From assembly GCA_964370755.1 (NCBI GenBank), contig CAYJKL010000004.1, positions 1,136 through 65,135 of the forward strand: a DNA stretch of 64,000 bases. Direction: 5' to 3'. Of the stretch, positions 4,132 through 57,400 are shown one piece after another (within the stretch, counting starts at the first letter, position 1; every line of letters starts with the position of its first letter). The position numbers and the translations under genes are program-made. Below the pieces are notes generated by a model, which had not been told where the DNA came from, did no database searches, and saw nothing but the letters and a program-made list of their open reading frames with translations. Source of the DNA: an uncultured Muribaculaceae bacterium. Its GTDB lineage: Bacteria > Bacillota_I > Bacilli_A > RF39 > UBA660.

Positions 4132-4149
4132 ATTATTTCATTCCTTTCA

Positions 4150-4560: not shown

Positions 4561-4572
4561 TTATAAAACCTC

Positions 4573-16579: not shown

Positions 16580-18586
16580 TTAGTTATTGTAATAATATAT
16601 TATTTGAACATCTGAAAAATTTCCATCTAATTTGAGGTAACTATCTATTTTTGTCAAATCTATGCTATCTTTAGTATCGTTTAAAAACTTAATTATGTCA
16701 TTATATTCTGTTGTCTCAAAATATATTTCTTCAGTCTTTGGATTTATAATTGTAAATGGTTTATCAATATCTACTACTATTCCAGGTGTGCTTATTAGTC
16801 CGTTTACTGAGTATGTTGGAATTATTTCTGCTATATCTTCTGTAATATCCTTTAACACTTCTGTTAATTCTTCTGAACCAACACTTGATTCATAATATAG
16901 TTTTTCCCCCTCATCATTTTCGCTTGCAAAATTTTTTAAAAAAGATGAGTTTACAGAATCACCAAGTCCAATAGTATATAATTTATTTATATATTCACTT
17001 TTTAAAGTATCAGCTTCTGTAGTACCATCATTTGAAGATCCATCACTTAAGAATATTACAAAAGAGTTTTCTTTATTAAATTCTTCTGGAGCTCCTTTTA
17101 TTACATTTATTGCTTCTGACAACCCACTAGAAAAACTTGTTCCTCCTGATGCATTCATGTCATTTACTATATCGATTACATCATTTTTATCTTCTAAATA
17201 TTCTCCTGCGGTATGAGCTGAAGAGGAGAATATAACTACAGAAAATATAGTTCCTGGTACATAATCCGTATTATCCATCAATACTTTTACTGCATTTTGT
17301 AAAGCATCTAGACCTCTTCCAGCCATACTTCCTGAATCATCTAGCACAAATACAATATGGGATTTTCCAACAGTATTCATATTGTCTTCGTTATATTTAA
17401 TTAAATTTATACTACGGTCATTAAAATTATATTTTGCAGTAAGCGTTATATTTTCAGTTATGTCTTTTGAACTTACGTCTTTTGAACTTGTAATTTTGTT
17501 TCCTAATTCATCATACCATCCATCAAATGTATATCCGTTTTTTTGTGGTATTGAAAGTGGTATATTTGGATCATTTTTATCAAATAATTTTGTTTCATCT
17601 TCAAATTGAGGATTGTCATAAATTATAGTTATTTTTCCTATATCCATTTCGCTTTTATATTTGTTTCCAACATTATCTATTGCGCATAAATACTGAATTC
17701 CTGTAGTGGTTACACTTATGCTTGATGGTAGTGTATCATTTTCATTAAATGTACAGTCTTCATCTCCTAATTTATAACTTTTAAGTCCTGAACCTACATC
17801 AGATACTTTTATTTCTAGTTCTTGAGTTTCGTCAGTGCTTATTTTTTTTGATGTTACTATAGGAGCTGCTTTATCCACTCTAATTCTAGAATCTGTTACA
17901 AACTGATAATCTTTTTCTTCGTGTGTATATTCTAAAGTTACATAAAAATATGCGTCTAATACATCCGTAGGCATTTCAAAAGTTATTTTTTTTCCATTTT
18001 CTAAACTTTCTGTATTCATGTAATATCCATGGTCACTATACCAAGTTAGTTTTACGTTTGTCGCGGTATTTAAATGCTCATTTATCTCTGTTCGATTTAT
18101 TTCTAAATTAAGTTCATTTAATGTTCCGAGCCAATTTTCACATTCTTTTCCATCACATTTTATTTTTATATCATCTTCTTTTGCTTCAAAATATTCGCAT
18201 GAAAAATCCAAATCTTTACTTTCAATTTCGTCTTCATTTTCTAAAGTTACTATGTACTCTCCGTCTTTATATTCTATTTTATACATTAAACAATTTAATT
18301 TTTTTGAATTATCTCTTGGGTCATATATAAAACCATCTGAGTCATCAGCTATAATGTAACCGCCTTTAATTAGTTCATCAATTGTTACGTATGTTATTTT
18401 AGATGTAGCATTTTCAAAAGCAAAAGTTTTAGCTTTACTTTCAATATTCGTAAGTATATTTGTTAGCTGGTTATCTTCTATATCTCTTTTTATGCTAAGA
18501 AATGAACTCGCTGCTATACTAACTATAATAGCAAGCACAATTATTACCGCTAGTAGTTCTGTTAGTGTAAATCCTTTATTATTCAT
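16580..18586 (-). CDS. Modular type IV pilin-like protein with a C-terminal von Willebrand factor A domain
   Basis: Class III prepilin signal MNNKG/FTLTELLAVIIVLAII. It also has a GYTFDGWYDELGN repeat (Listeria-Bacteroides type) and the vWA MIDAS motif VLDDSGSM. Confidence 0.8.
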   Translation of the reverse strand: MNNKGFTLTELLAVIIVLAIIVSIAASSFLSIKRDIEDNQLTNILTNIESKAKTFAFENATSKITYVTIDELIKGGYIIADDSDGFIYDPRDNSKKLNCLMYKIEYKDGEYIVTLENEDEIESKDLDFSCEYFEAKEDDIKIKCDGKECENWLGTLNELNLEINRTEINEHLNTATNVKLTWYSDHGYYMNTESLENGKKITFEMPTDVLDAYFYVTLEYTHEEKDYQFVTDSRIRVDKAAPIVTSKKISTDETQELEIKVSDVGSGLKSYKLGDEDCTFNENDTLPSSISVTTTGIQYLCAIDNVGNKYKSEMDIGKITIIYDNPQFEDETKLFDKNDPNIPLSIPQKNGYTFDGWYDELGNKITSSKDVSSKDITENITLTAKYNFNDRSINLIKYNEDNMNTVGKSHIVFVLDDSGSMAGRGLDALQNAVKVLMDNTDYVPGTIFSVVIFSSSAHTAGEYLEDKNDVIDIVNDMNASGGTSFSSGLSEAINVIKGAPEEFNKENSFVIFLSDGSSNDGTTEADTLKSEYINKLYTIGLGDSVNSSFLKNFASENDEGEKLYYESSVGSEELTEVLKDITEDIAEIIPTYSVNGLISTPGIVVDIDKPFTIINPKTEEIYFETTEYNDIIKFLNDTKDSIDLTKIDSYLKLDGNFSDVQIIYYYNN

Positions 18587-24056: not shown

Positions 24057-25091
24057 TTATAGTATTTTTAATTCTTTAATAAATTTATATACTAATAAAT
24101 CATTGTCTATATTTTTTATTCTTCTAATTTCACTAAAAGAATCATAGACTTTTGCATACTCTGCATTTTCTCTACTTAAAACATATTCAATTGATTTTAA
24201 TATTAAATCTTTATTATTATATGTCATAAAGAATGCTCTTGCTCTTCTTAAAGTTTTTTTAGAAACTCTTCTTGCTAATAAATTATATACCCATTTTGGC
24301 TTTTTTGCAAATACAAACTTATACCCATCTAAATTTTTAAATATTTTTATTGCGTCATAATAACCCATTTCAATATTTTTTTTAATACTCTCTCTGTTTG
24401 TATTAAGCATACCACCAAGTGATCTAGATGGCATTATTTTAATTATTTCAGCATTATTTAATTTCTTTTTTTGTACTCCAATTGCTTTTAAACCAATAAC
24501 ATATATTTTTTTATAACCTTTTTCTTCTAACATGTTTGAAGGGGATACATCATGAAATCCGCCATCTAAGTAATAACTTTCATCATCAAGTTTAATTGGT
24601 TTAAATACTGGTAAATAACAGCTTGCTATTATATAGTCAACAAGTGTTCCTTCAGGCATGTCTTCTTTGAATATATATAAAGGTTTCGAATCTTTTACTT
24701 TATATGTTGCAAGTCCAAAATCTTTGTTACTATTTCTTATTTTTTCTTCGTCAATAAATAATTTTAAATGTTTTCTAAATGGTTCAACATCTATTCCTTC
24801 ATTTTTAATTATACTTAAAACTGGAATTATTGCTTCTTTAATTTCATCAAATACATTTTTCTTTTCGAAGTTTGTATCTTCAATGAATCCTAGTAGGTCA
24901 CTAAGGTTTTCATTTAACCAAAAATCTTCAAGAGCTTTATAGTCATTATTAATAATCATTGCTGCATTAAACGAACCAATAGAAGTACCTGTTGCTCCAT
25001 CAATTTTAATATTACATTCAAGCATAGCTCTATAAACTCCTACTTGATATGCACCTTTAGTACCCCCACCTTCGAGTGCTATACCGGTCAT
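24057..25091 (-). CDS. Patatin-like phospholipase
   Basis: Oxyanion GGGTKG and nucleophile GTSIGS motifs. Confidence 0.85.
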   Translation of the reverse strand: MTGIALEGGGTKGAYQVGVYRAMLECNIKIDGATGTSIGSFNAAMIINNDYKALEDFWLNENLSDLLGFIEDTNFEKKNVFDEIKEAIIPVLSIIKNEGIDVEPFRKHLKLFIDEEKIRNSNKDFGLATYKVKDSKPLYIFKEDMPEGTLVDYIIASCYLPVFKPIKLDDESYYLDGGFHDVSPSNMLEEKGYKKIYVIGLKAIGVQKKKLNNAEIIKIMPSRSLGGMLNTNRESIKKNIEMGYYDAIKIFKNLDGYKFVFAKKPKWVYNLLARRVSKKTLRRARAFFMTYNNKDLILKSIEYVLSRENAEYAKVYDSFSEIRRIKNIDNDLLVYKFIKELKIL

Positions 25092-26020
25092 TTAATTCTC
25101 CTAATTATTAAATATAGTTTACCAAATAACTTTCTAACTCTAATTTTTCTTGCATTATATTTTACTCTGTCTATATAGTTTTCAAATGTATCGTTTTGAT
25201 ACTTCAATATATCATTATACTTGTCAATATCACTACACACTGGTGAATAATAATTTTTATCTAGAAATATATCTGATAATATTAGTTTGTAATTTATTCC
25301 TCTACTTTTTACAGTTTTATTTAGTAAATCACTATATAACATTGTAAAATCTTTGCTACCACCTATATTAATTGCTTTTTTATTTAAAGTTTTAACATTG
25401 TCTAATATTTTTACAAATGCATAACTTGCATCTTCTTTTGTAATACAATTAATCATGCTTTTTTTAGGAATACTGTATATTGCATGTTCTTTTAGATGTG
25501 AATTAAGAACTAGAGGCACTCTTACTATTGTATATTTTGATAGTTTTTCTTTTATCATACGTTCTGCTTTGAATTTATATTCTGAGTAGTATTCACCTTG
25601 CTCATACCCTGTATCACTTTTACTGGTAAATTCTTTATCATCTTTACCATATATTGTTGTAGATGATGCGTAAATTAAGTAACAGTTTGGATTATAGTAA
25701 TTTATTGATCTAATTATATTTTCAAGTGCATCGTACTCTATCATTTTGGTGATACCCCTTTTAATAGATGCTAATGGCGGAAGTATTGACGCTAAATGTA
25801 AAATAAAATCATGATCTTTTACTAATGCTTCAATCAATATTCGATCACATATATCACCATAAATTACATTGACTCTTTTTTTATATTTTTTTAGAAGGCC
25901 ATGTACTTTTTTGTTTTTTAAATCTAAAATAGTTATTTCGTATTTTCCTTCACTTAATAAATACTTTATTGCGTTGTAACCTACCGTTCCTGCTGCTCCT
26001 GTTACTAATATTTTTTTCAT
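25088..26020 (-). CDS. NAD-dependent epimerase/dehydratase family (SDR) protein
   Basis: Rossmann motif TGAAGTVG. 4-nt overlap with the patatin gene. Confidence 0.8.
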   Translation of the reverse strand: MKKILVTGAAGTVGYNAIKYLLSEGKYEITILDLKNKKVHGLLKKYKKRVNVIYGDICDRILIEALVKDHDFILHLASILPPLASIKRGITKMIEYDALENIIRSINYYNPNCYLIYASSTTIYGKDDKEFTSKSDTGYEQGEYYSEYKFKAERMIKEKLSKYTIVRVPLVLNSHLKEHAIYSIPKKSMINCITKEDASYAFVKILDNVKTLNKKAINIGGSKDFTMLYSDLLNKTVKSRGINYKLILSDIFLDKNYYSPVCSDIDKYNDILKYQNDTFENYIDRVKYNARKIRVRKLFGKLYLIIRRIK

Positions 26021-41924: not shown

Positions 41925-42262
41925 TTTTCCTCCGTATTTTTTTTAATTTTAGATACTTCTTGTATAAGTAATCTAATTTTTTCATTTTGGGCAGTTACTA
42001 TTATTGTTAAAGAAAGGCTTATTAGCAACAATATTATTATAACTATTACAAATAACATATTTGATAATGTTTCAAAATTAAAAAACACTGATATTTTTTC
42101 TAGAGTACTCGGAAATATTGAAGAAAATAATATAAATAAACTTGATAATATCCATATCATTGAATATTTTAGTGATATTAAGCCCTTTTTTACTATAAGG
42201 ATTATTATTACTATTAGAAATATTGAACCTAATATCATTTCAAATTGAAGTAATGGTGTCAT
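41921..42262 (-). CDS. DUF2304-like small membrane protein
   Basis: 113 aa with three TM helices and a C-terminal amphipathic helix. TAATG overlap with the GT2 fusion. This family typically accompanies polyprenyl-P GT2 genes. Confidence 0.55.
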   Translation of the reverse strand: MTPLLQFEMILGSIFLIVIIILIVKKGLISLKYSMIWILSSLFILFSSIFPSTLEKISVFFNFETLSNMLFVIVIIILLLISLSLTIIVTAQNEKIRLLIQEVSKIKKNTEEK

Positions 42263-44397
42263 TATTTTCCTCCTTTCATATTAGTAATTATCATCAATAA
42301 TATTACATTAATCATGTAGTATACACTTTTCCAAGATTTTATTGATGATTCTCCATTTTCTCTAGCGTGCATTTTTACTGCAACTTCTTCTATTTTTAAA
42401 TTATATTTTTTTAATATTATCGGACATATTGGTTCTGGATACTCTATTGGATACTTTTCAGCAAATATTTTTATTACATTCTTATTTGCTGCTCTAAATC
42501 CACTTGTTGGATCTGTTATTGTTTGATTCGATATTAATTTTATAAATTTTGAAATTATTTTTATCCCTACTTGTCTCATAGCAGTTGATTTAAATTCACT
42601 TGAGTTTATATCTACGAATCTTGAGCCAATCACAAAATCGGCGCCTGATTTAATTGGTTTAATTAATTCCTTAACGTAATTAACGTCATGCTGTCCATCT
42701 CCGTCAAATTGTATGGCAACATCATAATTATTTACTAGTGCATACTTATAACCAGTTTGTACTGCTCCTCCAATACCCAAATTATGTATTAGATTAATTG
42801 TATTAAAATTATTTTTCGCACAAATTTCTTTGGTTTTATCTGTTGATCCATCATTTATGATTATATAATCAATATTTTGTTTAGACTTTTCTATACTATT
42901 AATAGTTTTTACAATATTTTCTTCTTCATTATAAGCTGGTATAATTAATAATATTTTCTCTGCTTTTTTTTGTGTTTCCATTTCTTCTTTTGTATTCATT
43001 TTAATTTTTTCAACTTGATTCTTATTTGCTGCTATTATAATCAGTAATAATATTGCCGGGAAACTATATCTGCCATTTAGAACCACTAATAAATTAGATA
43101 ATATGTATCCTACTGTAAACAACTGCAATATTATGAGTTTGTGATTATTATTTTTTATATTTGAGTATACTGCAATTATAGAAAATGATATTATTGCAGT
43201 ATATATTATTAAATTTACATTATTTATTGTTTCGTAATTTTTTTGTACTATTGCTAAGCTCTCTTCGTCAATAATATATGATACATAATCTAGTGATGTG
43301 TTATGCGTAGTCCATAGTGATGTATATTTACAATTCATTAGTTCACTCGTTCCACTAATTCCATAACTTTTGTATCTATTAATTGTTTCATCAATTAAAA
43401 TACTACTTCCATTTTTTTCTTCTAATATCTCAAATGCATATTCAGAATCTTCTACTGTCCAACTTCCACAGTATTCTTTGTTTGCACCAAAATATAGTGA
43501 CCATTCAGTTGCACCTGGTCTAAGTTCCATATCTAATCGATTTTCAATATAAATGTTAATTAAACTACTTGTTATTGTATATGTAAGTATTATAATTACT
43601 AAACTTAGTATTTCTCTTAATTTCTTAATTGTCAAAATATAATAGATTACAAGTGCGATTAATAATATTAACATTATAGGTCTAATATTATTGCTCACTG
43701 CCATTATTATTCCAAGTAATATTATATAAAGTATACTTTTTTTATTCACTTCAAGTGTTTCTAAATTTTTAATTTTTTCTAATATTATTATTGTTAGTAT
43801 TAAAAACAGCATAAATATTGTTTCTGTTGCTACTAAAAAATTTGTAAATATTACTACTGGCATTATGAAATATAAACCACTAAGTAAAGTTCCAACCGGT
43901 TTTGACGTATACTTAATTATAACTTTATAAAGTAACAAGGTTGTTATTATCTGAACAATTACATTCCCAATTATAACTGAACTTACTCCTTTGCCAAATA
44001 GAAATAAAAAGAAGGCGAAAATGTTAGAAACCATTACAACATATCCATTGAATGCTAGATATGCATTATTAAAATTTTCTCCATTTAGTATTGAAATTGC
44101 GGTTTCATAATATAATAAGAAATCTGATTCTAATTCAAAATTTAAATTCAAGAAATAGTAACCTCTGATAATTAAACCTACAATTATAAATGAAATGAGT
44201 ATATATTTACTATTTTTATTGTTTATGAGATTTTTTTTATATAAAAAATAGAATGAGAATATCAGTATTATCACTACTATTCCTTCAATCGAAAAATAGT
44301 TCATATTGAATTTATGTAAATTCAAACCTAATATATATACTAATAATATTAGCAGTATAATTTGTATTACTTTTTTTAGTATATTCATACTATTCAC
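42262..44397 (-). CDS. Fusion protein: N-terminal GT-C-like polytopic domain plus C-terminal GT2 polyprenyl-phosphate glycosyltransferase (GtrB/ArnC/Dpm1-like)
   Basis: Residues 1 to about 455 have at least 12 TM helices, with ELESDFLLYYETA in the first loop. From about residue 475 on: LLIIPAYNEEENI, INDGSTDKT and QFDGDGQH. Confidence 0.75.
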   Translation of the reverse strand: MNSMNILKKVIQIILLILLVYILGLNLHKFNMNYFSIEGIVVIILIFSFYFLYKKNLINNKNSKYILISFIIVGLIIRGYYFLNLNFELESDFLLYYETAISILNGENFNNAYLAFNGYVVMVSNIFAFFLFLFGKGVSSVIIGNVIVQIITTLLLYKVIIKYTSKPVGTLLSGLYFIMPVVIFTNFLVATETIFMLFLILTIIILEKIKNLETLEVNKKSILYIILLGIIMAVSNNIRPIMLILLIALVIYYILTIKKLREILSLVIIILTYTITSSLINIYIENRLDMELRPGATEWSLYFGANKEYCGSWTVEDSEYAFEILEEKNGSSILIDETINRYKSYGISGTSELMNCKYTSLWTTHNTSLDYVSYIIDEESLAIVQKNYETINNVNLIIYTAIISFSIIAVYSNIKNNNHKLIILQLFTVGYILSNLLVVLNGRYSFPAILLLIIIAANKNQVEKIKMNTKEEMETQKKAEKILLIIPAYNEEENIVKTINSIEKSKQNIDYIIINDGSTDKTKEICAKNNFNTINLIHNLGIGGAVQTGYKYALVNNYDVAIQFDGDGQHDVNYVKELIKPIKSGADFVIGSRFVDINSSEFKSTAMRQVGIKIISKFIKLISNQTITDPTSGFRAANKNVIKIFAEKYPIEYPEPICPIILKKYNLKIEEVAVKMHARENGESSIKSWKSVYYMINVILLMIITNMKGGK

Positions 44398-47270: not shown

Positions 47271-48728
47271 TTATACACTATTTTTTCTTTTATTAGCAAG
47301 ATTTCTTTTATTATTACCCTTATTTTCTTCAAATTCTATAAACATAAAAAGACTTACTAATAAAAGTGGCACTAACTGATTAAAAATATTTCCACTTAGA
47401 TACGCTATAAAAAATGTAATCGCACATATTGATGCTTTTATAAAATGATAATATTTATTTGTTTTAAAATATGCAAATGTCATCTTAAAAGTTTGATATA
47501 TATATATTCCTAAAAATAGTATTAACCCAATTATTCCATACGCATAGTACTGAAGAGTTATATCACTTTCTATATTAAATATATTTTGAACTCTAGAGTT
47601 AGTTATACCAAAAAATACATCATTATTATTATCGTTTATTTCTATTACTCTTTTAATCATTTCTGTTTCTAAATATCTATAATTTGTTCTAGAACTTTCG
47701 TCTTGCTGAAGTATTTCATACCAAAAATCAGGGTCGTACTGATATGGGTATCTGTTTATAATAAAATTTGCATTAATTTTTAATTCTTCGTAATTTTCTT
47801 CAATATATTCTTCTTTTGATAATTCTTTTTTTTCTTCCAATTTTTCTTCGTATGCAAGTATATAAGTTGTTTTAGCATTTAACAAATCATAAGTTTCCAC
47901 TCGTCTAATACTTGGGGAATATGGAAGCAGTATTCCGAATAATATCATTAAGCTTATTGTTTTTAAAATATCTTTTTTTGAATAATCAATTTGTTTAGTT
48001 ATCTTATATAAAATGGTAAATATAAAAACTACTATGAAAATTGCAGCCAGTCCGATACTAGATACTCTTGTACCTAACATAAGACTTGCTATAATAATTA
48101 AGATTATATAATTAAAATTTATTTTTTTGTTTATAAAGTAGTAGAAACTTATTACGAATAGTATATTTAATATTAAACATATTTGATTTGCATACATAAA
48201 ATAACCTTTACTAGCTAAGTCTGCATAGTAATAACCATTGCTGAACCATGAAAAAATATTGCCTTTTATTATTTGATCTGCATAACTACTTTCTGATATT
48301 ACAAATATGTTAGTTATTACTATACTACCTGCGACAAATAAAATATAGTATTTTATTAGCTTAATAAAAAACATTTTATTTATTTTTGTGTGTCTAATTA
48401 TGTAGATAAATAATATAGGTACACATAATTTGGCGATTTGCAATATTTCATCATATAAATTGTAATTGAAATTCCCTGGAACTAGAGAATTAAAATTATT
48501 AGAGTTTAAGTGATGAAATATATAATATACTAGCACAATACTAAAATATGCAATAATGTACTTCACATTTTTTCTTGATCCTTTATTTGTATATAATAAC
48601 ATTATAAAAAGCATTACTACTGTTATTAATAATGCTAGTGTAACTATTGAATTATAAAAACTCCCTAATAAAAATATAGGTAAAGTAATAAGTAACATAT
48701 TTAATAATTTTGCATATAGATTATTCAT
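47271..48728 (-). CDS. O-antigen ligase/polymerase-like polytopic membrane protein
   Basis: 485 aa with more than 10 TM helices and a large hydrophilic loop (about residues 290-370). Confidence 0.55.
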   Translation of the reverse strand: MNNLYAKLLNMLLITLPIFLLGSFYNSIVTLALLITVVMLFIMLLYTNKGSRKNVKYIIAYFSIVLVYYIFHHLNSNNFNSLVPGNFNYNLYDEILQIAKLCVPILFIYIIRHTKINKMFFIKLIKYYILFVAGSIVITNIFVISESSYADQIIKGNIFSWFSNGYYYADLASKGYFMYANQICLILNILFVISFYYFINKKINFNYIILIIIASLMLGTRVSSIGLAAIFIVVFIFTILYKITKQIDYSKKDILKTISLMILFGILLPYSPSIRRVETYDLLNAKTTYILAYEEKLEEKKELSKEEYIEENYEELKINANFIINRYPYQYDPDFWYEILQQDESSRTNYRYLETEMIKRVIEINDNNNDVFFGITNSRVQNIFNIESDITLQYYAYGIIGLILFLGIYIYQTFKMTFAYFKTNKYYHFIKASICAITFFIAYLSGNIFNQLVPLLLVSLFMFIEFEENKGNNKRNLANKRKNSV

Positions 48729-48815
48729 AATATACTCTTTTCTTAAAATATTTTATCATATTAGGCATTAAAAATCTATATTTGACATCAAATCTTTTCT
48801 TTAAGATAAATTTAG

Positions 48816-48843
48816 TAAAAAAATAAGCGATTTTTTCGCTTAT
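48816..48843 (-). terminator. Rho-independent terminator
   Basis: ATAAGCGA-AAAAA-TCGCTTAT followed by a T run on the minus strand. Confidence 0.7.
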
Positions 48844-48855
48844 CTTATTTTTTGT

Positions 48856-50535
48856 CTATAGTCCGTAATGTGCTAAACCAAATTTGATTAATTCAATTAT
48901 TCCAGGTATATTTATTGCGATTAATGAAACTATTAATAGGTAATAAATGATTATTTTAAATTTCAATTTATTTTTTAATAACTTTTCTATTAGCATAATT
49001 ATTAGTATTATATACGCCCAGGAAAAGTATAATGAATATAGTATCAAACCATTTTCTGATGTTCCCCAACCAACTAGGCATAACATAACGAAGGAAAATA
49101 TTACCCAAGAAAAACATATTTTACATAATTTTTCTTTATAATTTAAAATAAATGATATTATAACGAGTAGTATTATCCCAACGCCTATATAATTTACTTT
49201 TAAAGAATCTTCTAACTGATATACTATATTTCCGTGTTTGTTTATTTCTATTATTGTATCTAATTTATAAAAACAATTCGCAACAAAATCTGTGAATTGA
49301 TAAAATTTTTCATAAAAATATAATTCTTTTCCTGTATAATGAGTAGTATAAATTGTTAGCAATTGTATTGCATCTAATAATTTTGGTAACTGACCAAATA
49401 TTGATATAGTTGTTATTGTATTAATAAATAAATAAACTAAATTTATTATTTTGTCTTTTAATTTTTTCGAACTAATAGTCAACGGAAATAATATTCCACT
49501 TGTTAATAGTGTACCTGTTGAACAGATATAAAGTTCGTCTTTATTTTTCTTATCTTTTATATATGCATTAATTAACATTATTAGCCAAAAAAATGCTATT
49601 ATGTATTGCTCTATATTTAACACAAATAGTAAAAATGGATAAGATACAAAGAATATAAATAAAAATATTTTTTTAGTAAGATTATCAAAATTTAGTAATT
49701 TACTTAAGGTTACTGCGCTAAATATTAATAACATACAATGTAAGATTGCCGTTGTAATAAAATATATATTTGGTACAAACGGTAATGTATTTGACACTGC
49801 TTTTACAAAAACTGTAAACGGTAGCGCTATTATACCAAATAAAGGTTGTCTTAAATCATTTTCATGGGCATTTACATAATAATATGTGTCTGTGTATAGT
49901 AAAAAACCTGTGTCTGTTGTATATACAACATCATAAGGAATACTATTGCCATAATCGTCTACTGGTTGATAAAATACTGTTGTGTTATTATAAATAATTA
50001 TAATTAATATAGATATTATAATTGTCATAATTATAAATAGTTTTTTTTCTTTTTTTTCGAATCCAACAAAATCTTCAATTATATCTCTTATAATTTTTGT
50101 GTAGAAAAAGTTCGTTGCTACATATACTGCGAAAAAAGAAAGCAGTGTAAATAATTCTAAAAATAGTAATGCTCGATCTACTGAAAAGTTAAAATTATGG
50201 ATATTATCATTAATAAAAGTTTGTACAAAAATGTTATCTATATAATTTTGCGAAACTGCGTAAGTAAGTAGAACTGACCATAGTAGAACTGGATAGTTTA
50301 TTCCTTTTTCAAATATTTTTTTCAAAAAGTTCTTTTTAAACGCTAAATAACAAACTGTAATTAGAGATATAACTAAAGTTACAAAAGTATATAAATACGG
50401 CAGCTTATACCCTATAAGTGAAAATGTTAAAATTAGTCCTGATAATATAAATATTACTTCAAGAACTGTGGTTTTTGATAGTTTAATAACTATACTATCA
50501 ACTTTATCTCTTAATTTTTTTATTATAGTTTTCAT
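48856..50535 (-). CDS. Large polytopic membrane protein, GT-C-like candidate glycosyltransferase
   Basis: About 14 TM helices. One loop contains VDDYGNSIPYD...HENDLRQPLFG. I moved the start to MKTIIKK after AGGGAGG. Confidence 0.55.
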   Translation of the reverse strand: MKTIIKKLRDKVDSIVIKLSKTTVLEVIFILSGLILTFSLIGYKLPYLYTFVTLVISLITVCYLAFKKNFLKKIFEKGINYPVLLWSVLLTYAVSQNYIDNIFVQTFINDNIHNFNFSVDRALLFLELFTLLSFFAVYVATNFFYTKIIRDIIEDFVGFEKKEKKLFIIMTIIISILIIIIYNNTTVFYQPVDDYGNSIPYDVVYTTDTGFLLYTDTYYYVNAHENDLRQPLFGIIALPFTVFVKAVSNTLPFVPNIYFITTAILHCMLLIFSAVTLSKLLNFDNLTKKIFLFIFFVSYPFLLFVLNIEQYIIAFFWLIMLINAYIKDKKNKDELYICSTGTLLTSGILFPLTISSKKLKDKIINLVYLFINTITTISIFGQLPKLLDAIQLLTIYTTHYTGKELYFYEKFYQFTDFVANCFYKLDTIIEINKHGNIVYQLEDSLKVNYIGVGIILLVIISFILNYKEKLCKICFSWVIFSFVMLCLVGWGTSENGLILYSLYFSWAYIILIIMLIEKLLKNKLKFKIIIYYLLIVSLIAINIPGIIELIKFGLAHYGL

Positions 50536-51505
50536 AAATACCTCCCTTGAATGCATAGTTTTTCATTAGTAAGAAAGTAACTGGAACACCGAGAGCTACT
50601 GCTATTATATAGGAATATACTTCACTGATTCCAATAATATTATAAAATAAAAACACTACAATATTTTGAATTAAAAAATTAGGGATATATGATATTACAA
50701 ATTTTATAAATTTTTTAGTTGAATAATTAGTTTTGAATGTAATACTTGTATTTAAAATATAAGATATTATTAAACTTGTGATATATCCTAATATGAAACT
50801 AATATTAGCATTACTAATTATGTTGGAATATAAAATTGCAAATAATACTCCATTTATTGCATTTATTCCACCTACAAATAAAAATTTTAAAAATTCTTTA
50901 TTTATAAATTGTTTTTGTGTTTTTTGCATTAGTGAACTTCTATTATACTCCCAGTCACTTATATCATTCCCCTCCACGATAAAAGATTTTTTCGCTAACT
51001 TGGCCAATGGTTCATCTGAATATGAATCAGAGTAAAATTCATTTATTTTTGCATTTGGATATGCAATCTTAAACCTAAATACTTTTTCTTTGCCATAACA
51101 ATTTAACCCTGTATACGTACCTGTTTTCATATCTACTATAGACGCTAACACATTGTTTACACCAAGCCTTTTCATCATTGGCTTTACTAAAAATTCTGGA
51201 GAAGCTGATATGATAATATCACTTTCTTTTGTTTGCTTTAAATAATATTCTAAAATATTTTTTTCCTTAGCATCCCAAAATTTTTCAACTAGTTTTTTTG
51301 TGTTTCTACTCTTAGTTAGAAATACATAAAACTTTTCTTTGAATTCAGTTTTTGTATATATTTTAAATATATACTTTATAAAGGCAATACCTTGTTTTGG
51401 AAGGCATAGTAATATTTTTGGGTTATTTTTTATACAAAAAAAATAAAAATCCTTTGTTGAATCATTTTTATAGATTGTTTTATCAAAATCATATACATTA
51501 ATCAT
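50504..51505 (-). CDS. HAD phosphatase::GtrA-like flippase fusion protein
   Basis: N-terminal YDFDKT (DxDxT) with a HAD-IB-like body. The C-terminal 130 aa form a 4-TM GtrA-like domain (FLKFLFVGGINAINGVLF). Confidence 0.75.
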   Translation of the reverse strand: MINVYDFDKTIYKNDSTKDFYFFCIKNNPKILLCLPKQGIAFIKYIFKIYTKTEFKEKFYVFLTKSRNTKKLVEKFWDAKEKNILEYYLKQTKESDIIISASPEFLVKPMMKRLGVNNVLASIVDMKTGTYTGLNCYGKEKVFRFKIAYPNAKINEFYSDSYSDEPLAKLAKKSFIVEGNDISDWEYNRSSLMQKTQKQFINKEFLKFLFVGGINAINGVLFAILYSNIISNANISFILGYITSLIISYILNTSITFKTNYSTKKFIKFVISYIPNFLIQNIVVFLFYNIIGISEVYSYIIAVALGVPVTFLLMKNYAFKGGIYENYNKKIKR

Positions 51506-52566
51506 TTTAACTCCTTAAACTTTTCTGTGAAAGCAAACATATTTCCTATAATTGATGATAATATAATTGATATTATACAACATATTATAAAAAATAGAAT
51601 TTCAATTATTATATTATCATTTAGCATTGCATCTAAATTAAGTGTATACATTATAAATACAAATACTAGTGGATGAAATAAGTATATCACAAATACATTA
51701 TTTTTATATGAACTTATTAAATTTTTAGTTAACTTTTTATGCGATAAATATTCTATAAGATTATTAATTTTATCGGAAAGTAAATATATTAATACCATAC
51801 TTGAACATGAGTATAAGAAAAAAATCATATTTGGTGGAAATTTGTTATTTTGCATAATCAGACTTATTCCTGTTGCGCTAGAAAAAATTAGTATTAATAT
51901 TATAAAAACCGTAACTAATTTTAATACGCTTCTTGCGGATATTTTTTGTTTACTATGACTATTATAAAATAAACCCAGGTATGTAAAAAATATATAAAAT
52001 ATTATATTTATAAGTATGTCATTTACAAATATACCTTTTATATTTAGTAAAGTGCTTAACATTATTAGACCTGTTGTTATATAAAATATTATATATTTTG
52101 TTTTTATATTATTTTTAAGTTTTTTTAATAATGGTATCATTAACATTATTCCGATATATACTGGTATAAACCATAATGCGTATGTTAGATAAGGAACATT
52201 TGATATTGAATATTGACTAGGTAATATCCAGCTTGTTATAAAATAAAAGTTGTTTTCTATTTCTAATCCATAGTATTCATTCCAGATTAAGTTTATTATC
52301 ATTGCAGCGTGAGAATAAACAATAATTGGTACTGCAATTCTTAGCATTTTATTTTTAAGATATAAAGAGTATTTTTTTGTACTTGATAATGAATTTGAAG
52401 CACCAGTTAGATAAAAAAATAACGACATTTCTATTAGGAGTAATGATTTAATAACCATACCTAGTTCATCCACAAATACTGGTATCCAAAATAAGCAATG
52501 AATAAATATAACATGCATTATTGCAAATGTTCTTAAATTGTCTATTTTATTATCTCTTAACTTCAT
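51502..52566 (-). CDS. Acyltransferase_3 family membrane O-acyltransferase
   Basis: N-terminal DNLRTFAIMHVIFIHC and about 10 TM helices. Confidence 0.8.
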   Translation of the reverse strand: MKLRDNKIDNLRTFAIMHVIFIHCLFWIPVFVDELGMVIKSLLLIEMSLFFYLTGASNSLSSTKKYSLYLKNKMLRIAVPIIVYSHAAMIINLIWNEYYGLEIENNFYFITSWILPSQYSISNVPYLTYALWFIPVYIGIMLMIPLLKKLKNNIKTKYIIFYITTGLIMLSTLLNIKGIFVNDILINIIFYIFFTYLGLFYNSHSKQKISARSVLKLVTVFIILILIFSSATGISLIMQNNKFPPNMIFFLYSCSSMVLIYLLSDKINNLIEYLSHKKLTKNLISSYKNNVFVIYLFHPLVFVFIMYTLNLDAMLNDNIIIEILFFIICCIISIILSSIIGNMFAFTEKFKELK

Positions 52567-52580
52567 TTTTCCCCCTGGTA

Positions 52581-53450
52581 TCAGAAATAAATTAAAAATA
52601 TTAATATCCCTGAAAATAGCGTTGATAATAGTAGTAGGCCTTTATCTTTAAATAACACCTCTACTGGATCTCCATCTGAGTCTCCTTCTACTTGTAAACT
52701 GTACTTCATACATATTAGAATTAGTATTGGTACACTGTAAATTAAATTATTTGAACCTATCGCCTTTATTGTATTTTGATCTATTGTCCATAATGTATAA
52801 AATGCTATAGATAGTGTAAGATTCATATACATATTTTTATCTAAAAAATCTTTGTTGTAATGTTTTAATACATCTCTTACTTTGTCTGATTTATTAACTC
52901 TTATTAATTCATTTCTTCTTTTTCCTAAACCTAGGTAAAATGCAAATGTAATTACTGTAAGATAAAGCCAATTTGATATTTCAATATTTGTTATCATCGA
53001 ACCAAATAATATTCTAAATATAAAACCTGATACTAAAATTGCAACATCAACTATAGGTATATTTTTTAGGCCAAAACTATAAGCTATATTAAATATAAAA
53101 TATGAACTAATAATTATATACGGATATATATTGCTTTTCGATGCTATAGCTGCAACTACTAGCGCTGATATAAATAAAATTGAACCTAATATACATGCTT
53201 TTTTTACTGAAACACTTCCATTTGCTATAGGTCTATTTTTTTTAGTTGGATGTTTACTATCTTTTTCTTTATCTCTAATATCATTTATTATGTATACAAC
53301 TGATGAAATTAAACTAAATGAAATAAATCCTAGAAAACCAATTTTTAATATTTCTATATTAGTTATATTTCCACTGAATATTATCGGCAGTAGTATTAAT
53401 AAATTTTTTATATAGTGCTTTATTCTCATTAACTTCAAATATTTTTTCAT
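52581..53450 (-). CDS. UbiA-family prenyl-phosphate phosphoribosyltransferase-like (DPPR synthase-like)
   Basis: NDIRDKEKDSKHPTKKNRPIANG motif and 8-9 TM helices. I moved the start to MKKYLK after GTGAGGA. Confidence 0.78.
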   Translation of the reverse strand: MKKYLKLMRIKHYIKNLLILLPIIFSGNITNIEILKIGFLGFISFSLISSVVYIINDIRDKEKDSKHPTKKNRPIANGSVSVKKACILGSILFISALVVAAIASKSNIYPYIIISSYFIFNIAYSFGLKNIPIVDVAILVSGFIFRILFGSMITNIEISNWLYLTVITFAFYLGLGKRRNELIRVNKSDKVRDVLKHYNKDFLDKNMYMNLTLSIAFYTLWTIDQNTIKAIGSNNLIYSVPILILICMKYSLQVEGDSDGDPVEVLFKDKGLLLLSTLFSGILIFLIYF

Positions 53451-53523
53451 TACAAAAATCCTCACTTTACTTGTTAATTATAACAAATTTTCTATTATTG
53501 TCAAAATATAGTTAGGCTTTATT

Positions 53524-53552
53524 AAAAAAAAATACGACTTAAAAATCGTATT
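53524..53552 (-). terminator. Terminator after the cohesin-protein gene
   Basis: AATACGA-TTTTTAAG-TCGTATT followed by T9 on the minus strand. It overlaps the stop codon. Confidence 0.65.
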
Positions 53553-54933
53553 CATCTTTCTTCTTTTTCTTTTTTTCTTTTTTTACTTTTTCTTTTTTAG
53601 GTTTACTATCTTTATTATTTTCTTTTTCTTCACCATCAAAAGAATGTTTTTTTGAAGTTTTTTTGTTTTTTCTCATAAGTCCGAATATTATAATAAATAA
53701 AAGTATTATGAAACCAGATAGACCCATGATTACATAAAGATACAATTCTTTATCGTCATTTACTTCGTCTACGTTTTGAGCATCATAAGCAATTACTGAT
53801 TCATTTTTACTATCATATGTGTAAAAACCTTCTTCTCCAGTTATTACACTTTTTCCATATACTACCCAAAACTCTGAATTTGCTTCTAGTTTTAAAACTT
53901 CCGCACTGTTACCAAAAATTGTTTCTGTGTATTTAGTATATCCATCAAGTGTCTTAGTAGTTTCTATTGGAACTATCATTAATCCATTAAATTTATATTC
54001 GATATACTTTGTGTAAGTGTTTTTACTTTCATCATAGATATAAAGTTCTACTAACCCTTCATCATCTTTAAGACCTACTAAAGTGTAACTTAGTTTATCG
54101 TTAGTGTATGTCGGTATTTCAAACTCACCCATTACTAGTGTTGACTCAACAAAGTTAGTAGGTGCTACTAGTTGCTCACGAAGTTTAACAACTGTTTTAT
54201 TATCACCTTCTACTGTTACTGGTATTGGATTTTGATCTATTACATTTACTGTTAATTTATAAACTCTTTCAGAACCATTTTGTGCCCGAACAGTTATATC
54301 AAAATTATTTATACCAGGTGTTACTGCAAGAGTACCTGCACCTTCTACTGAAGACCTTGAGTCATTTACACTTGCTCCTATGTTTATCTCTTTTGTTCCT
54401 TCAGGAACTTCTACTGTGTACTCTGATGTATCTTTATCAAATGCTGGTGATATTTCATAACCTTCTACAGTTAATCCTTTTAAATAATTATCTTTTGAAT
54501 AACTTGCTTCTATTTCAGCTTGAGTTTTTACTGTAATTGTTCTTGATGATGAACTTATTTGCATTTCACTCATATCATTTGCTATTACTTGATAACTATT
54601 TACTGCTAAATTTGTGCTCCCTGTTTTAAGTGTTTTAAATTTAAAAGTATAATCTTTATATGTAATACCTGCACTTGAATTTGCCATTCTAGTTCCACCA
54701 GCTTCTGCTGATGATGAAGTAAGTTGTAAGACACTTGGATCATATGATAAATCCATTATCCATGACCCTATTGCAGTACTACTTGATAACTTTACCGTTA
54801 CTGTTACCGTGTTTCCCTTTACAACCGTCGTGGCATTTGACGAAACACTAATACTTCCTGATGCGGCACTTACTATATTTGGAAATATTACTCCTGCTAT
54901 TAAAAGTAATAATAAATATTTTATTTTTCTCAT
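53539..54933 (-). CDS. Membrane-anchored surface protein: cohesin-like domain, cadherin-like beta-sandwich and a C-terminal TM with a Lys-rich tail
   Basis: Signal peptide ...NIVSA/AS. Cohesin-like GNTVTVTVKLSSSTAIGSWIMDLSYDPSVLQL. Cadherin-like YLKGLTVEGYEISPAFDKDTSEYTVEV. TM segment LYLYVIMGLSGFIILLFIIIFGL. Confidence 0.7.
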   Translation of the reverse strand: MRKIKYLLLLLIAGVIFPNIVSAASGSISVSSNATTVVKGNTVTVTVKLSSSTAIGSWIMDLSYDPSVLQLTSSSAEAGGTRMANSSAGITYKDYTFKFKTLKTGSTNLAVNSYQVIANDMSEMQISSSSRTITVKTQAEIEASYSKDNYLKGLTVEGYEISPAFDKDTSEYTVEVPEGTKEINIGASVNDSRSSVEGAGTLAVTPGINNFDITVRAQNGSERVYKLTVNVIDQNPIPVTVEGDNKTVVKLREQLVAPTNFVESTLVMGEFEIPTYTNDKLSYTLVGLKDDEGLVELYIYDESKNTYTKYIEYKFNGLMIVPIETTKTLDGYTKYTETIFGNSAEVLKLEANSEFWVVYGKSVITGEEGFYTYDSKNESVIAYDAQNVDEVNDDKELYLYVIMGLSGFIILLFIIIFGLMRKNKKTSKKHSFDGEEKENNKDSKPKKEKVKKEKKKKKKDEYDF

Positions 54934-54948
54934 TTTATTCCTTTCTTT

Positions 54949-56652
54949 TTATTGAACTATTGTATATGTTCCTAAGATGTTTTTTTGAACTTGTAATAAG
55001 TCAAAAGCATCTATTACTCCATCTTTTGTTGGATCTGCTGCTTTAGAGTAAACATCTACTAAACTATATGTTCCTAAAATACTTTTTTGTACTTGAAGTA
55101 AGTCTAGGGCATCTATATTTCCATCACCTGATGTATCTCCATATATTACTACTGATAAAACTTCTGTTCCAGCTTCTGATTTAATTGATATTTTATCTCC
55201 TGTTGCTAACTTTCCAGTTGTTTTTACATTTTCATTTTTATCCATAATTACTACGTTACCATGACCAGCAGCACCTTCAAGAGTACCTTTCATTGTTTCT
55301 GCTGTTGTTTCTGGAACTACTTTTGATATTGTTGTTGATGTATAGTCAAATCCACTTGATACTACTAGAGTACTTACTGGCATTTCAGATAAATCGTTAT
55401 CTGGATTTTCTCCAGTTGCTCCAGAGCCAGTATTGTCAATAATTGTGTCCATGTTATTGTAAACTGGAATCTTGAACATGTATGCATTATTTAAGAAGTT
55501 TGTATCTCTATAATTAGCATAAACTGTCTTAGCTTCACTCATCGGAGCTTGTATATTTGTCATGTACTGATTTAAATATAACTTATTTGCACTAGTAGGA
55601 ACTACATTAAACTTTTGTAAGTATGTTGTGTACTGTCCTACTGATATATATTTTGTTGCTAAGAAGTTAGAACCTCCTTGAAGTGCTTCATCTACTGAGT
55701 CCCATCCATAATTTCTAGCGTATGTTAGACCACAGTATGTTGTACCATTTTGTTTTACACAATCATCTGATACTCCTATGTTGTAAAAATTGTAAAGTCC
55801 ATAATATCCATCTGTTACTCCACTGTAAAGATTGTAAAGTGATGTTCCAGAACCTAATTCTTGTCTTATTCTTGACGCTAAGAAAGTTGGATTAACATCC
55901 GTACTTTTCCCTGCATTTAATACCATATTTGTAAAATCTAAGCCTTTTCCAGTATGATATGTGTAAAAAGATGCTCCCGAGAATATCGATGATATAACAT
56001 GCGTGTACTGACTTTCAAGTGATGCTTCGTATTTTAAGTATTCGAACTGAAATATAAAGTTTTCTCCTAAGAAGTTTCTTGGGTCTAAATAGTATGCTAC
56101 AGCCTCTTTTGTAGGTGGCTCCCATCCTGAATATCCATAACTACATGTTGAATCTATATAATTTGTATTACTTGTATAAAATAAACTAATACCGCAGTTA
56201 CTTTCTGCTTGCACAGCTGATGCCCATTCTAGATTTGTTGGAATTGCTTCGAATTGCCAGTTTGGGTGCTGCTCTTTAATAAAGCATAAATACGGAATAT
56301 AACTGCTTGGAAATCCTGCATTTTTCATATCTACTTCGCACTGTGTACTACCAGTTGCGTCTCCATAATTTATATACGGAATTGCATAGTTTGCAGATAC
56401 ATATCCTATTTTTCCAGTAGCTGGATCTTTTACTTTCCACCAATTACCTTCATATTTTGTTGTATCTACTAAATCAAGTATTGCATCAGCATAAAAGGTT
56501 TCTGAATAACTTGACCAACCATATGGACTTGAATGTAAATCTGCCCATCCATTAATATCTACTATTCTAACGTGATAAGTTTTTGCAAAGACATCAGAAG
56601 CTAATATGAAATATAAACATAATAAAAATACTAAATATACTACTTTTTTCAT
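54949..56652 (-). CDS. Secreted SH3b, glucosaminidase-like (GH73/LytD-type) protein with a C-terminal type I dockerin
   Basis: Signal peptide. SH3b-like WWKVKDPATGKIGYVSANY. AYYLDPRNFL and NPTFLASRIRQELG blocks. Two dockerin repeats, DTSGDGNIDALDLLQVQKSILG and DPTKDGVIDAFDLLQVQKNILG (54952-55143). Confidence 0.8.
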   Translation of the reverse strand: MKKVVYLVFLLCLYFILASDVFAKTYHVRIVDINGWADLHSSPYGWSSYSETFYADAILDLVDTTKYEGNWWKVKDPATGKIGYVSANYAIPYINYGDATGSTQCEVDMKNAGFPSSYIPYLCFIKEQHPNWQFEAIPTNLEWASAVQAESNCGISLFYTSNTNYIDSTCSYGYSGWEPPTKEAVAYYLDPRNFLGENFIFQFEYLKYEASLESQYTHVISSIFSGASFYTYHTGKGLDFTNMVLNAGKSTDVNPTFLASRIRQELGSGTSLYNLYSGVTDGYYGLYNFYNIGVSDDCVKQNGTTYCGLTYARNYGWDSVDEALQGGSNFLATKYISVGQYTTYLQKFNVVPTSANKLYLNQYMTNIQAPMSEAKTVYANYRDTNFLNNAYMFKIPVYNNMDTIIDNTGSGATGENPDNDLSEMPVSTLVVSSGFDYTSTTISKVVPETTAETMKGTLEGAAGHGNVVIMDKNENVKTTGKLATGDKISIKSEAGTEVLSVVIYGDTSGDGNIDALDLLQVQKSILGTYSLVDVYSKAADPTKDGVIDAFDLLQVQKNILGTYTIVQ

Positions 56653-56791
56653 ATAGCCTCCAATCATACTATATCATTATAACATTTTTTGTCGAATATT
56701 TGGTGATAAATTTATGAAAATTTTAACTTTTTGTAAAACAACCCTAGTTTTTTTTTAATCTTTATAATATAATTAAGTTGGTGAGAGATAT

Positions 56792-57400
56792 ATGCTTGGA
56801 AATAGTTATGATAAAATTGATTTTGTTTTTATATCATTAATAACACTTTATTTAGTTGTTTTACTAATATTAGTTTTATTTTTATTGATGAGACCAAGCA
56901 AGAAAGATGACAACAAAAATATAGAAGAAATTAATAAAATTAAAAATATTAAGAAGGTTAGAACTAAAGAATTTAAGATGCCAACTTTTGAATTACCTAA
57001 ACTTAATAGACCTGTTTGGCTAGATAAATTTATTTTACTTATGAAAGAACCTATTATTAAGAAGGTTGTTGTTAGCGAAACAAAAAAAGTTGCTTCTGCT
57101 AGCGTAATTATTAGTCCCGATAATATAAATACTAATAATGTTGAACCTAAAGTTAAAACTAACGCTAAAAACAAAGAGGAAAATACTGTTAAAAATAAAG
57201 AAGAAATTACGAAAAAGAAAACTTCGAAAATTAGTAATGCTACTAAAAATAAAACTACTTCTACTAAAAAACCAAGTAGTACTAAAAAAGCTTCTGCTAC
57301 TAAAAAAACAACTAATACTACAGTTAAAACTACCACTAAGAAAAAACCAACTAGAAAGAAAACTCCTAAAACTTATCATAAAAACAAAAAGAAAAAGTAA
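56792..57400 (+). CDS. Membrane-anchored Lys/Thr/Asn-rich low-complexity protein
   Basis: RBS GGTGAGAG, an N-terminal TM helix and an extremely basic KKT/TKK-rich tail. Both antisense frames are also open, so the strand call rests on the RBS and TM helix. Confidence 0.45.
   Translation: MLGNSYDKIDFVFISLITLYLVVLLILVLFLLMRPSKKDDNKNIEEINKIKNIKKVRTKEFKMPTFELPKLNRPVWLDKFILLMKEPIIKKVVVSETKKVASASVIISPDNINTNNVEPKVKTNAKNKEENTVKNKEEITKKKTSKISNATKNKTTSTKKPSSTKKASATKKTTNTTVKTTTKKKPTRKKTPKTYHKNKKKK

Follow-up and report, generated by a model that had tools for sequence, protein, structure and literature searches.

Organisation of the operon

Is the four-gene group at 48856..53450 of the uncultured bacterial contig CAYJKL010000004.1 a pathway that builds a lipid-linked ribofuranose from phosphoribosyl pyrophosphate (PRPP) and delivers it to a polymer outside a Gram-positive cell? 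The stretch of DNA analysed (the window) is 64 kb long and comes from a low-GC (about 22–33%) bacterium with Gram-positive envelope genes. The four genes encode a UbiA-family protein, a membrane acyltransferase, a HAD phosphatase domain fused to a GtrA domain (HAD::GtrA), and a 559-aa membrane protein with a predicted glycosyltransferase C (GT-C) fold. The operon is likely a Gram-positive version of the three-component pentofuranose glycosylation system. Its content matches the component list of the system described by Kelly et al. (Kelly, Duong, Nothof, Lowary and Whitfield, PNAS 2024, PMC11127046), in that a UbiA protein, a GtrA domain and a GT-C-fold protein are encoded in one operon, close to TagGH-, Wzy-, LCP- and glycosyltransferase genes. 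The features of the operon are as follows.

53477..53504, minus strand: putative sigma-70-type promoter, TTGACA, 16 nt, TG-TATAAT (extended TG); a consensus match only
52581..53450, minus strand: UbiA-family gene, 289 aa from its ATG (the longest open reading frame (ORF) opens at a GTG at 53465)
51502..52566, minus strand: Acyl_transf_3 gene, 354 aa, a standalone AT3-family membrane O-acyltransferase; accessory
50504..51505, minus strand: HAD::GtrA fusion gene, 333 aa, with DFDKT at residues 6–10
50936..51505, minus strand: HAD-IB phosphatase domain of the fusion, residues 1 to about 190; proposed polyprenyl-P-ribose-5-phosphate 5-phosphatase
50549..50887, minus strand: GtrA-type domain of the fusion with four transmembrane (TM) helices, residues 207–319; proposed polyprenyl-P-ribofuranose flippase
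48856..50535, minus strand: gene for the GT-C-fold membrane protein, 559 aa, of an unclassified family; proposed extracytoplasmic pentofuranosyltransferase
48823..48843, strand unassigned: putative hairpin terminator with an 8-bp stem and T-runs on both strands

The four co-directional genes look like one transcription unit, since they have one promoter, one terminator and tight or overlapping junctions. The putative promoter is the sole 12/12 consensus match in 48600..53700 and is found about 25 nt upstream of the ribosome-binding site and ATG of the UbiA gene. The hairpin was called by the scan on the plus strand; read by eye on the minus strand, its stem (ATAAGCGA/TCGCTTAT) is followed by TTTTTTT and lies 12 nt past the last stop codon. 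A preliminary description of this DNA had reported 4-nt overlaps on both sides of the acyltransferase gene. One of these is present, as an ATGA overlap with HAD::GtrA, but the UbiA side proved to be a 14-nt spacer carrying a ribosome-binding site. The 32-nt overlap reported between HAD::GtrA and the gene for the 559-aa protein was read correctly. The longest ORF of this last gene is 566 aa; the 559-aa version begins at the ATG at 50535, which is preceded by an AGGGAGG ribosome-binding site and coincides with the start of homologues. The grouping of the genes into a unit also stands: all four ORFs are on the minus strand, and the recurrence of their adjacencies and domain fusions in many unrelated genomes exceeds coincidence.

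Homology of the UbiA-family protein to phosphoribosyltransferases

The UbiA-family protein matches Pfam UbiA (E = 3.8e-21) and contains NDIRDKEKDSKHPTKKNRPIANG. Its top NCBIfam matches are three decaprenyl-phosphate phosphoribosyltransferase (DPPRS) models (E from 1e-62 to 3e-46): it scores 208.7 bits against NF008978 (cutoff 207, E = 1e-61) and 211.5 bits against NF008977, just under the cutoff of 234. The best UbiA-subfamily model outside the DPPRS group reaches E = 8e-16, and the models for UbiA, MenA-like proteins, haem O synthase, MqnP and chlorophyll synthase do no better. An identity as a quinone or haem prenyltransferase was rejected, with those models at 1e-12 or worse against 1e-62 for DPPRS. 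The sole PDB sequence matches are to the Mycobacterium tuberculosis DPPRS (8j8j and 8j8k; E = 1.9e-35, residues 5–277), with 30% identity over 267 aligned residues.

The window protein shares the motifs NDxxDxxxD...RPxAxG and KRxxE with the mycobacterial enzyme, and both are also conserved at 25 related loci. NDIRDKEKD and GKRRNEL of the window protein align with NDVRDVEAD and GKRYAEL of M. tuberculosis (the loop II Mg/PRPP motif and the R...E of loop IV, respectively). ORF15 of Citrobacter youngae, which consists of a HAD phosphoribose phosphatase (PRP) and a UbiA-type polyprenyl-phosphate phosphoribosyltransferase (PPPRS), makes polyprenyl-P-ribofuranose from PRPP (PMC11127046). Its residues N247, D248, D251, D255, R366 and E369 have been mutated; activity required N247, D248, D251 and D255, while the R366A and E369A variants were still active (PMC11127046). 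The NDxxDxxxD and KRxxE motifs of the window protein correspond to these same residues. Model scores, PDB match and motifs all group the protein with phosphoribosyltransferases and not with MenA, UbiA or haem O synthase, in keeping with the identity first proposed for it, and by homology it is a full-length polyprenyl-phosphate 5-phosphoribosyltransferase of the DPPRS/PPPRS type.

A candidate phosphatase–flippase and an accessory acyltransferase

The fusion of a HAD phosphatase (DFDKT) to a GtrA-like domain, as first described, is borne out by Pfam matches to HAD (2.3e-14) and to GtrA_DPMS_TM (7.4e-14, residues 207–319), and the first domain also matches TIGR01490 (HAD-IB) at 1.5e-18. The HAD motifs DFDKT (motif I, DxDxT), SASP (II), K141 (III) and DSxSD (IV) are invariant in 28 homologues. 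No TM helix lies ahead of the HAD domain, which places it in the cytoplasm. An AlphaFold2 (AF2) model of the protein (pLDDT 85.5) superposes in its HAD half on 3fvv and phosphoserine phosphatases, the closest folds, and in its C-terminal four helices on the TM domain of dolichyl-phosphate mannose synthase (5mlz). A PDB sequence search with HAD::GtrA gave no match, and profile A2 matched a single PDB entry, 3fvv, a HAD protein of unknown function. We know of no direct demonstration of flipping by a GtrA protein, for the whole family.

Relatives of HAD::GtrA number 2926 proteins at E <= 0.001 in a 90%-clustered database, and both domains are present in all but two of the 120 matches listed. The fusion is encoded in at least 593 species genomes, mostly Clostridia, with further carriers in Solibacillus, Desulfosporosinus, Erysipelotrichaceae, a Muribaculaceae metagenome-assembled genome (MAG) and a Methanocorpusculum MAG. 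The best identity to the window protein among the GTDB representatives scanned is 54%.

The acyltransferase matches Pfam Acyl_transf_3 (7.2e-31; a 10-TM domain) over residues 6–340, nearly the whole profile, and carries no SGNH partner domain. No homologue of it adjoins HAD::GtrA in 80 other genome loci, and an AT3 gene beside UbiA and a GT-C-like gene in one further locus (L090) is unrelated to it. The protein was therefore rejected as a conserved member of the module, and we read it as a locally recruited O-acylation step.

A membrane protein with a predicted GT-C fold

No Pfam family scores above cutoff in the 559-aa protein. Its sole match, a C-terminal one to DUF6080 (E = 3.8e-4), is below the gathering score, and a PDB sequence search gave no match. 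The AF2 model, made from a 54-sequence alignment, has a pLDDT of 92.1 and a pTM of 0.92, and shows about 14–15 TM helices, close to the 14 or so counted beforehand. When the model was compared to the PDB with Foldseek, the first four, and five of the first six, matches were GT-C glycosyltransferases. The best was ALG12 (9s6t; E = 0.011, prob 1.0, TM 0.44/0.50, 417 columns), the other leading ones being AglB, PimE, Pmt1/2 and STT3 (inside a translocon complex); lower down, PglB, ALG3, AftA and EmbB are mixed with unrelated membrane proteins. Judged from the model, the 559-aa protein adopts a GT-C fold. The loop at residues 183–232 has one K/R and seven D/E, with D208 invariant and D202, N226, D227 and R229 near-invariant. 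Lys/Arg-rich segments are found at the N-terminus and in the loops at 68–80 and 145–165, and the positive-inside rule predicts that the 183–232 loop is outside the cell, as expected of a GT-C catalytic loop.

A word-indexed search found 234 relatives of the GT-C-like protein, none with a Pfam domain. An exhaustive HMM search, covering 1.84 billion representatives, found 961 clusters at 50% identity with E <= 0.001, of which 702 were at 1e-30 or better. By these searches the family appears compact and isolated in sequence space. The possibility that it is a divergent PMT_2 family was rejected, as hhalign comparisons to a PMT_2-type cluster (c6) and an unassigned cluster (c15) gave probabilities of 1–2%. 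Given these negatives and ALG12 as the closest fold, it is probably distinct from CAZy GT136. Some homologues have N-terminal extensions of about 150 aa, in which no Pfam domain was found apart from the HAD fusions.

Conserved gene order and domain fusions

If these proteins act together, then their genes might be expected to be neighbours in other genomes, and this was surveyed at 80 genome loci around HAD::GtrA relatives. A DPPRS-type UbiA gene lies within the fetched flank at 25 of the loci, and in 21 genomes it is directly upstream of, and co-directional with, HAD::GtrA. Another 31 loci have the order carD-ispD-ispF-HAD::GtrA and form one clade of Clostridia MAGs in a neighbour-joining tree; outside this clade, UbiA is nearby in 25 of 49. 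The GT-C-like family, in turn, adjoins UbiA in 12 of the 15 loci examined, including those of Acetanaerobacterium elongatum, a Bacilli MAG and a Planctomycetaceae MAG. The GT-C partner varies across the HAD::GtrA loci, being the window family in nine; its place is taken elsewhere by a PMT_2-type protein (as in C. butyricum and C. puniceum, among others) or by a member of a third family, so far unassigned. Serotype-specific GtrC proteins are likewise variable.

The HAD domain also changes partners. It is fused to the GT-C-like family in proteins of about 730 aa (among them P0017, P0018, P0039, P0052, P0054 and P0376); that of P0017, the gene of which follows a UbiA gene, is 46% identical to the HAD domain of the window. 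In Rhizobium tumorigenes pRt932 a HAD domain is fused to UbiA, and in Citrobacter ORF15 to the UbiA-type enzyme (PMC11127046). Domain fusions of HAD with GtrA, with the GT-C-like family and with UbiA argue that the components of the module are functionally linked.

Several of the loci show variations in layout. At L084 (1648..3840), the locus of P0017, the module takes the form of two genes, UbiA and the HAD::GT-C-like fusion, and the pair does not include GtrA. The Bacilli MAG locus L089 (2362..7578) has genes for a PMT_2-type GT-C, UbiA, a standalone HAD, an unassigned 239-aa protein and the GT-C-like protein in a row, and appears to be one donor pathway feeding two different GT-C transferases. 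On two Methanocorpusculum sp. MAG contigs (L069 and L073), UbiA is followed by HAD::GtrA, with the GT-C-like gene next in L073; either the module reached this methanogenic archaeon by horizontal transfer or the contigs were binned wrongly. A MatE-family transporter gene precedes HAD::GtrA (L009, L010) or UbiA-HAD::GtrA (L016), which may be meaningful given the MATE flippase of Citrobacter, or may be a coincidental efflux gene. The seven-gene row of R. tumorigenes pRt932 (L086, 687044..693234) includes HAD::UbiA, a DprE1-like FAD oxidase, a DprE2-like short-chain dehydrogenase/reductase (SDR), a further NAD epimerase, a further FAD oxidoreductase and GtrA; from its gene content, it would be an elaborate cassette that makes a pentofuranose donor by way of several redox or epimerase reactions. 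Examples of the ispDF-linked arrangement among L004–L083 are L005 (8322..10972), L013 and L028. A phage collection gave one match, an unannotated 6.6 kb scaffold.

Proposed pathway and alternative explanations

All of the pathway steps at the window locus, and likewise the identity of the sugar and of the acceptor, are what we infer from these data. The UbiA protein would carry out the phosphoribosyltransferase reaction, as its orthology and conserved catalytic residues suggest. The HAD-IB domain would then take off the 5-phosphate, which is consistent with its intact motifs, cytoplasmic placement and gene fusions. By analogy, the GtrA domain would move polyprenyl-P-ribofuranose to the outer leaflet, where the GT-C-fold protein would put the ribofuranose on an exported, wall-associated glycopolymer, likely lipoteichoic acid (LTA) or the polymer that the adjacent TagO/TagA/TagGH/LCP-type cluster makes. 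The AT3 protein would O-acylate (probably acetylate) the same polymer or its side chain. The polyprenyl-P-ribofuranose relay of the preliminary description thus finds support in homology, fold and context (a DPPRS-type UbiA, an intact HAD, GtrA and a GT-C fold). A wider proposal is advanced more tentatively, as in our view it falls a little short of an even chance. It holds that HAD::GtrA is a coupled phosphatase–flippase for one-step dephosphorylation and export, that the 559-aa protein founds a new GT-C family of polyprenyl-P-pentofuranose-dependent transferases, and that many gut Clostridia and dairy Lactococcus decorate wall polymers, exopolysaccharide (EPS) or LTA with ribofuranose or an epimer of it. 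On this view, the fusion behind ispD-ispF in one Clostridia clade would be a housekeeping gene with a fixed position.

The surroundings of the operon bear on the acceptor. The window is a Gram-positive envelope-polymer region encoding a TagO-like GT4, TagA/WecG, a Wzx flippase, two O-antigen-ligase/Wzy-like proteins, TagG/TagH-like ABC transporter components, several GT1, GT2 and GT4 enzymes, an LCP ligase and an LtaS-like sulfatase-fold enzyme. The operon itself is flanked by an ABC-transporter cluster on one side and by two surface proteins on the other. An exported wall polymer or LTA is the most economical acceptor.

A number of observations weigh against this interpretation. The HAD domain is, by sequence, not a close relative of the proven ORF15-type phosphoribose phosphatase: its similarity to the HAD domain of Rhizobium HAD::UbiA, a stand-in for the ORF15 type, is marginal (19% identity, E = 0.029), and NF006088 gave no match to it. 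Foldseek E-values for the GT-C fold are weak, even the best being 0.011. The 31 ispDF-linked loci have no UbiA within 10 kb, and this linkage may point to a housekeeping function in polyprenyl carrier metabolism, or may be no more than fixed synteny. In Erysipelotrichaceae, HAD::GtrA adjoins a GtrB-like GT2. Because of this pairing and the ispDF loci, HAD::GtrA may serve other lipid-linked sugars. Several loci with UbiA and the GT-C-like gene are without HAD or GtrA nearby, and epimerases acting on the donor could be encoded beyond the 64-kb window.

The last point leads to a different end product, in which an epimerase encoded elsewhere (DprE1/DprE2 or an ORF13-like SDR) acts before flipping and the final sugar is arabinofuranose, xylofuranose or another epimer. 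Such branches occur: in Citrobacter O2, one SDR turns the ribose donor into the xylofuranose donor, and the GT-C accepts either (PMC11127046). The O2 variant is paralleled in six related Firmicute loci (L039, L068, L070, L072, L074 and L083) by a GalE-like SDR epimerase gene directly after HAD::GtrA, and in pRt932 the HAD::UbiA gene is accompanied by DprE1-like, DprE2-like, SDR and GtrA genes. Our view of the genome is 64 kb, and it includes one SDR 'Epimerase' ORF (25088..26020). We nevertheless regard an epimerised sugar as unlikely. The SDR ORF is the only one in the window and lies next to a patatin gene at a distance of 23 kb, and neither of two module-linked SDR probes matches it; no SDR follows HAD::GtrA in the window operon, whereas participating epimerases elsewhere are encoded inside the module. 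The absence of DprE1/DprE2 from the unit, pointed out beforehand, extends to the whole window, where the ORFs of 150 aa or more include neither FAD_binding_4/ALO nor a DprE2-like SDR. Searches (phmmer) using the Rhizobium DprE1-like and DprE2-like proteins as probes found nothing in the window, in the 83 HAD::GtrA loci L001–L083 (nearly all Bacillota) or in L084–L085. The mycobacterial arabinose (decaprenyl-phosphoarabinose) pathway was rejected for lack of this pair in the window. As no epimerase for the donor is encoded in the operon or the 64-kb window, ribofuranose is the default sugar, and from this much of the genome the sugar is predicted to stay ribofuranose.

Alternatively, the ribofuranose might be passed to a protein, such as a pilin, an S-layer protein or a cohesin/dockerin surface protein, much as Pseudomonas TfpW arabinosylates type IV pilins. 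The operon abuts the genes of a cohesin/cadherin-like and a dockerin-bearing protein (53539..56667), and the window has Tad/type IV pilus components and an N_methyl pilin-like VWA protein. In P. aeruginosa, moreover, the donor with which pilin is glycosylated comes from a DPPRS homologue (cited in PMC11127046). A protein acceptor is improbable, to about the same degree as an epimerised sugar, given that polysaccharide genes (GT2/GT4, Wzx, O-antigen-ligase-like, LCP and TagGH) lie downstream of the operon and accompany the module in Lactococcus, L084, L089 and L090, and that the GT-C-like protein has no detectable likeness to known protein O-glycosyltransferases beyond the shared GT-C fold. Less probable again is that HAD::GtrA handles polyprenyl-phosphate sugars in general (for example, as a carrier-recycling phosphatase and flippase), with the 5-phosphate removed by another enzyme or retained. 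The adjacency of UbiA to HAD::GtrA in 21 genomes argues for a dedicated role, as does the finding of this HAD domain in fusions with the GT-C family that is linked to UbiA, and the mycobacterial and Citrobacter pathways each need a dedicated 5-phosphatase (PMC11127046). A general role would account for the 31-genome clade, which keeps HAD::GtrA behind ispD-ispF (isoprenoid precursor synthesis) with no UbiA nearby, though these genomes may encode UbiA elsewhere. It would also fit the Erysipelotrichaceae pairing, the weak resemblance of the HAD domain to PgpC-type lipid phosphatases, and the fact that the window, with one GtrA domain in all, also encodes a PMT_2::GT2 fusion for which a flippase is required.

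Other features of the window

The PMT_2::GT2 fusion (42262..44397, minus strand) is a 711-aa protein with an N-terminal PMT_2-type GT-C and a C-terminal GT2 resembling polyprenyl-phospho-sugar synthases (PpgS/GtrB-like). By its domains it would bring together, in a single polypeptide, two components of a three-component hexose modification system. The GtrA domain of HAD::GtrA is the only GtrA-like ORF in the window, and might serve both the pentose and the PMT_2::GT2 systems.

Immediately upstream of the operon, at 53539..56667 (minus strand), are the genes of the two adjacent surface proteins. One protein combines cohesin and cadherin-like domains with a C-terminal TM helix and a tail rich in Lys, and the other has a dockerin type I domain, making a cohesin–dockerin pair possible. 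At 491..8743 (minus strand), Tad/type IV pilus-like genes (T2SSE ATPase, RcpC/CpaB-like) adjoin the gene of a 1149-aa protein without a Pfam match. Further along, at 16580..18586 (minus strand), is the gene of a pilin-like protein of 668 aa, which has an N_methyl motif together with a Listeria-Bacteroides repeat and a VWA domain. A 202-aa Lys/Thr/Asn-rich, low-complexity ORF (56792..57400, plus strand) has one N-terminal TM helix and no Pfam match; antisense ORFs overlap it, and it is not certain to be coding.

Comparison with known systems

Two better-known pathways share parts of the arrangement. In the mycobacterial decaprenyl-phosphoarabinose pathway, the first enzyme (Rv3806c) is homologous to the window UbiA protein (30% identity, full length), and a GtrA-family protein (Rv3789, GtrA-like) and GT-C enzymes (Emb/Aft) use a polyprenyl-P-pentofuranose donor. 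That pathway has DprE1/DprE2, whereas the window is without both and no arabinose is expected. The window phosphatase is of HAD type, unlike mycobacterial Rv3807c, which is reported to be unrelated to HAD-family phosphatases (PMC11127046), and the GT-C-like protein is not related in sequence to Emb/Aft. The function of the window system is probably side-chain decoration, and not polymerisation of an essential arabinan as in mycobacteria.

The other is hexose modification of the Gtr type, represented by GtrA/GtrB/GtrC in Shigella and Salmonella and by GtcA/CsbB/YfhO and GtlA/GtlB, which act on teichoic acids in Bacillus and Listeria. Here too synthesis of a polyprenyl-P-sugar takes place inside the cell, a GtrA-family protein flips it, and on the outside a GT-C passes the sugar to a polymer that has already been exported; AT3 O-acetyltransferases often accompany such systems. 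The donor synthases differ, being a GT2 with a nucleotide sugar in Gtr-type systems and a UbiA-type phosphoribosyltransferase with PRPP in the window. Since the window donor would come from PRPP via a phosphoribosyltransferase, an extra dephosphorylation step is needed.

The same four protein families are encoded in a row on plasmid pF27D of Lactococcus cremoris F.2.7 (NZ_CP068515.2; L085, 22219..26355), inside an EPS cluster with an LCP ligase, and there they are known from annotation only. The GT-C-like, DPPRS and HAD-IB proteins are 34%, 48% and 46% identical to those of the window, and the module is followed by phosphodiester glycosidase and LCP genes. Unlike in the window, HAD and GtrA are separate genes and the GtrA protein is short (83 aa), the GT-C-like protein is without the N-terminal helices of the window protein, there is no AT3 gene in the module, and the cluster is on a mobilizable dairy plasmid. 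The gene content predicts that the pF27D EPS contains a pentofuranose.

The closest parallel is the Citrobacter O1/O2 system. In C. youngae, the predicted flippase is a MATE protein (ORF14), and the GT-C ORF12, founder of CAZy GT136, adds alpha-ribofuranose to the O antigen in the periplasm (PMC11127046). Candidate systems listed in the supplementary information of the same study have transporters of either MATE or SMR/GtrA type, and the list includes a Bacillus strain and one phage system in which the PRP is separate (PMC11127046). Shared with the window operon are a UbiA-type, PRPP-dependent PPPRS with the same motifs, a HAD phosphatase, a small-transporter flippase, a GT-C and a position beside a glycan cluster; in Citrobacter, as proposed here, ribofuranose is kept when no epimerase is present. 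The two differ in several respects. The HAD is fused to the UbiA enzyme in Citrobacter but to the flippase in the window, and the window domain is only distantly similar (the 19% identity to the Rhizobium HAD::UbiA domain). The flippase is a MATE protein in one and a candidate of GtrA type in the other. The window GT-C-like protein probably belongs to a separate, unclassified family and has no carbohydrate-binding module (CBM) domain, unlike the Citrobacter GT-C, and an AT3 acyltransferase is part of the window operon. Finally, the host is Gram-positive, with a wall polymer or LTA as the predicted acceptor instead of the O antigen.

If the pathway operates as proposed, PRPP-derived pentofuranose decoration extends to Gram-positive bacteria, two large unannotated families (HAD::GtrA and the new GT-C family) gain a function, and many gut Clostridia and a dairy Lactococcus exopolysaccharide carry an unreported sugar epitope. 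Phage adsorption, immune recognition and the properties of EPS are all influenced by surface epitopes of this sort. The glycoengineering toolbox would also gain these enzymes, and as the module is found in tractable hosts (C. butyricum, C. puniceum and L. cremoris F.2.7), the prediction is directly testable. In the literature searched there was no paper on a Firmicute version, in agreement with what had been supposed at the outset, nor any publication on a pentofuranose in the pF27D EPS or report of pentofuranose decoration in gut Clostridia or dairy Lactococcus. The relay as such had been thought to lack a precedent, but ribofuranosylation by a PPPRS with a HAD phosphatase, a flippase and a GT-C was shown in Citrobacter (Kelly et al., 2024, PMC11127046). 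The concept is therefore already published, and what the window operon adds to it is the HAD::GtrA fusion, an unclassified GT-C family, an added acyltransferase and a Gram-positive host.

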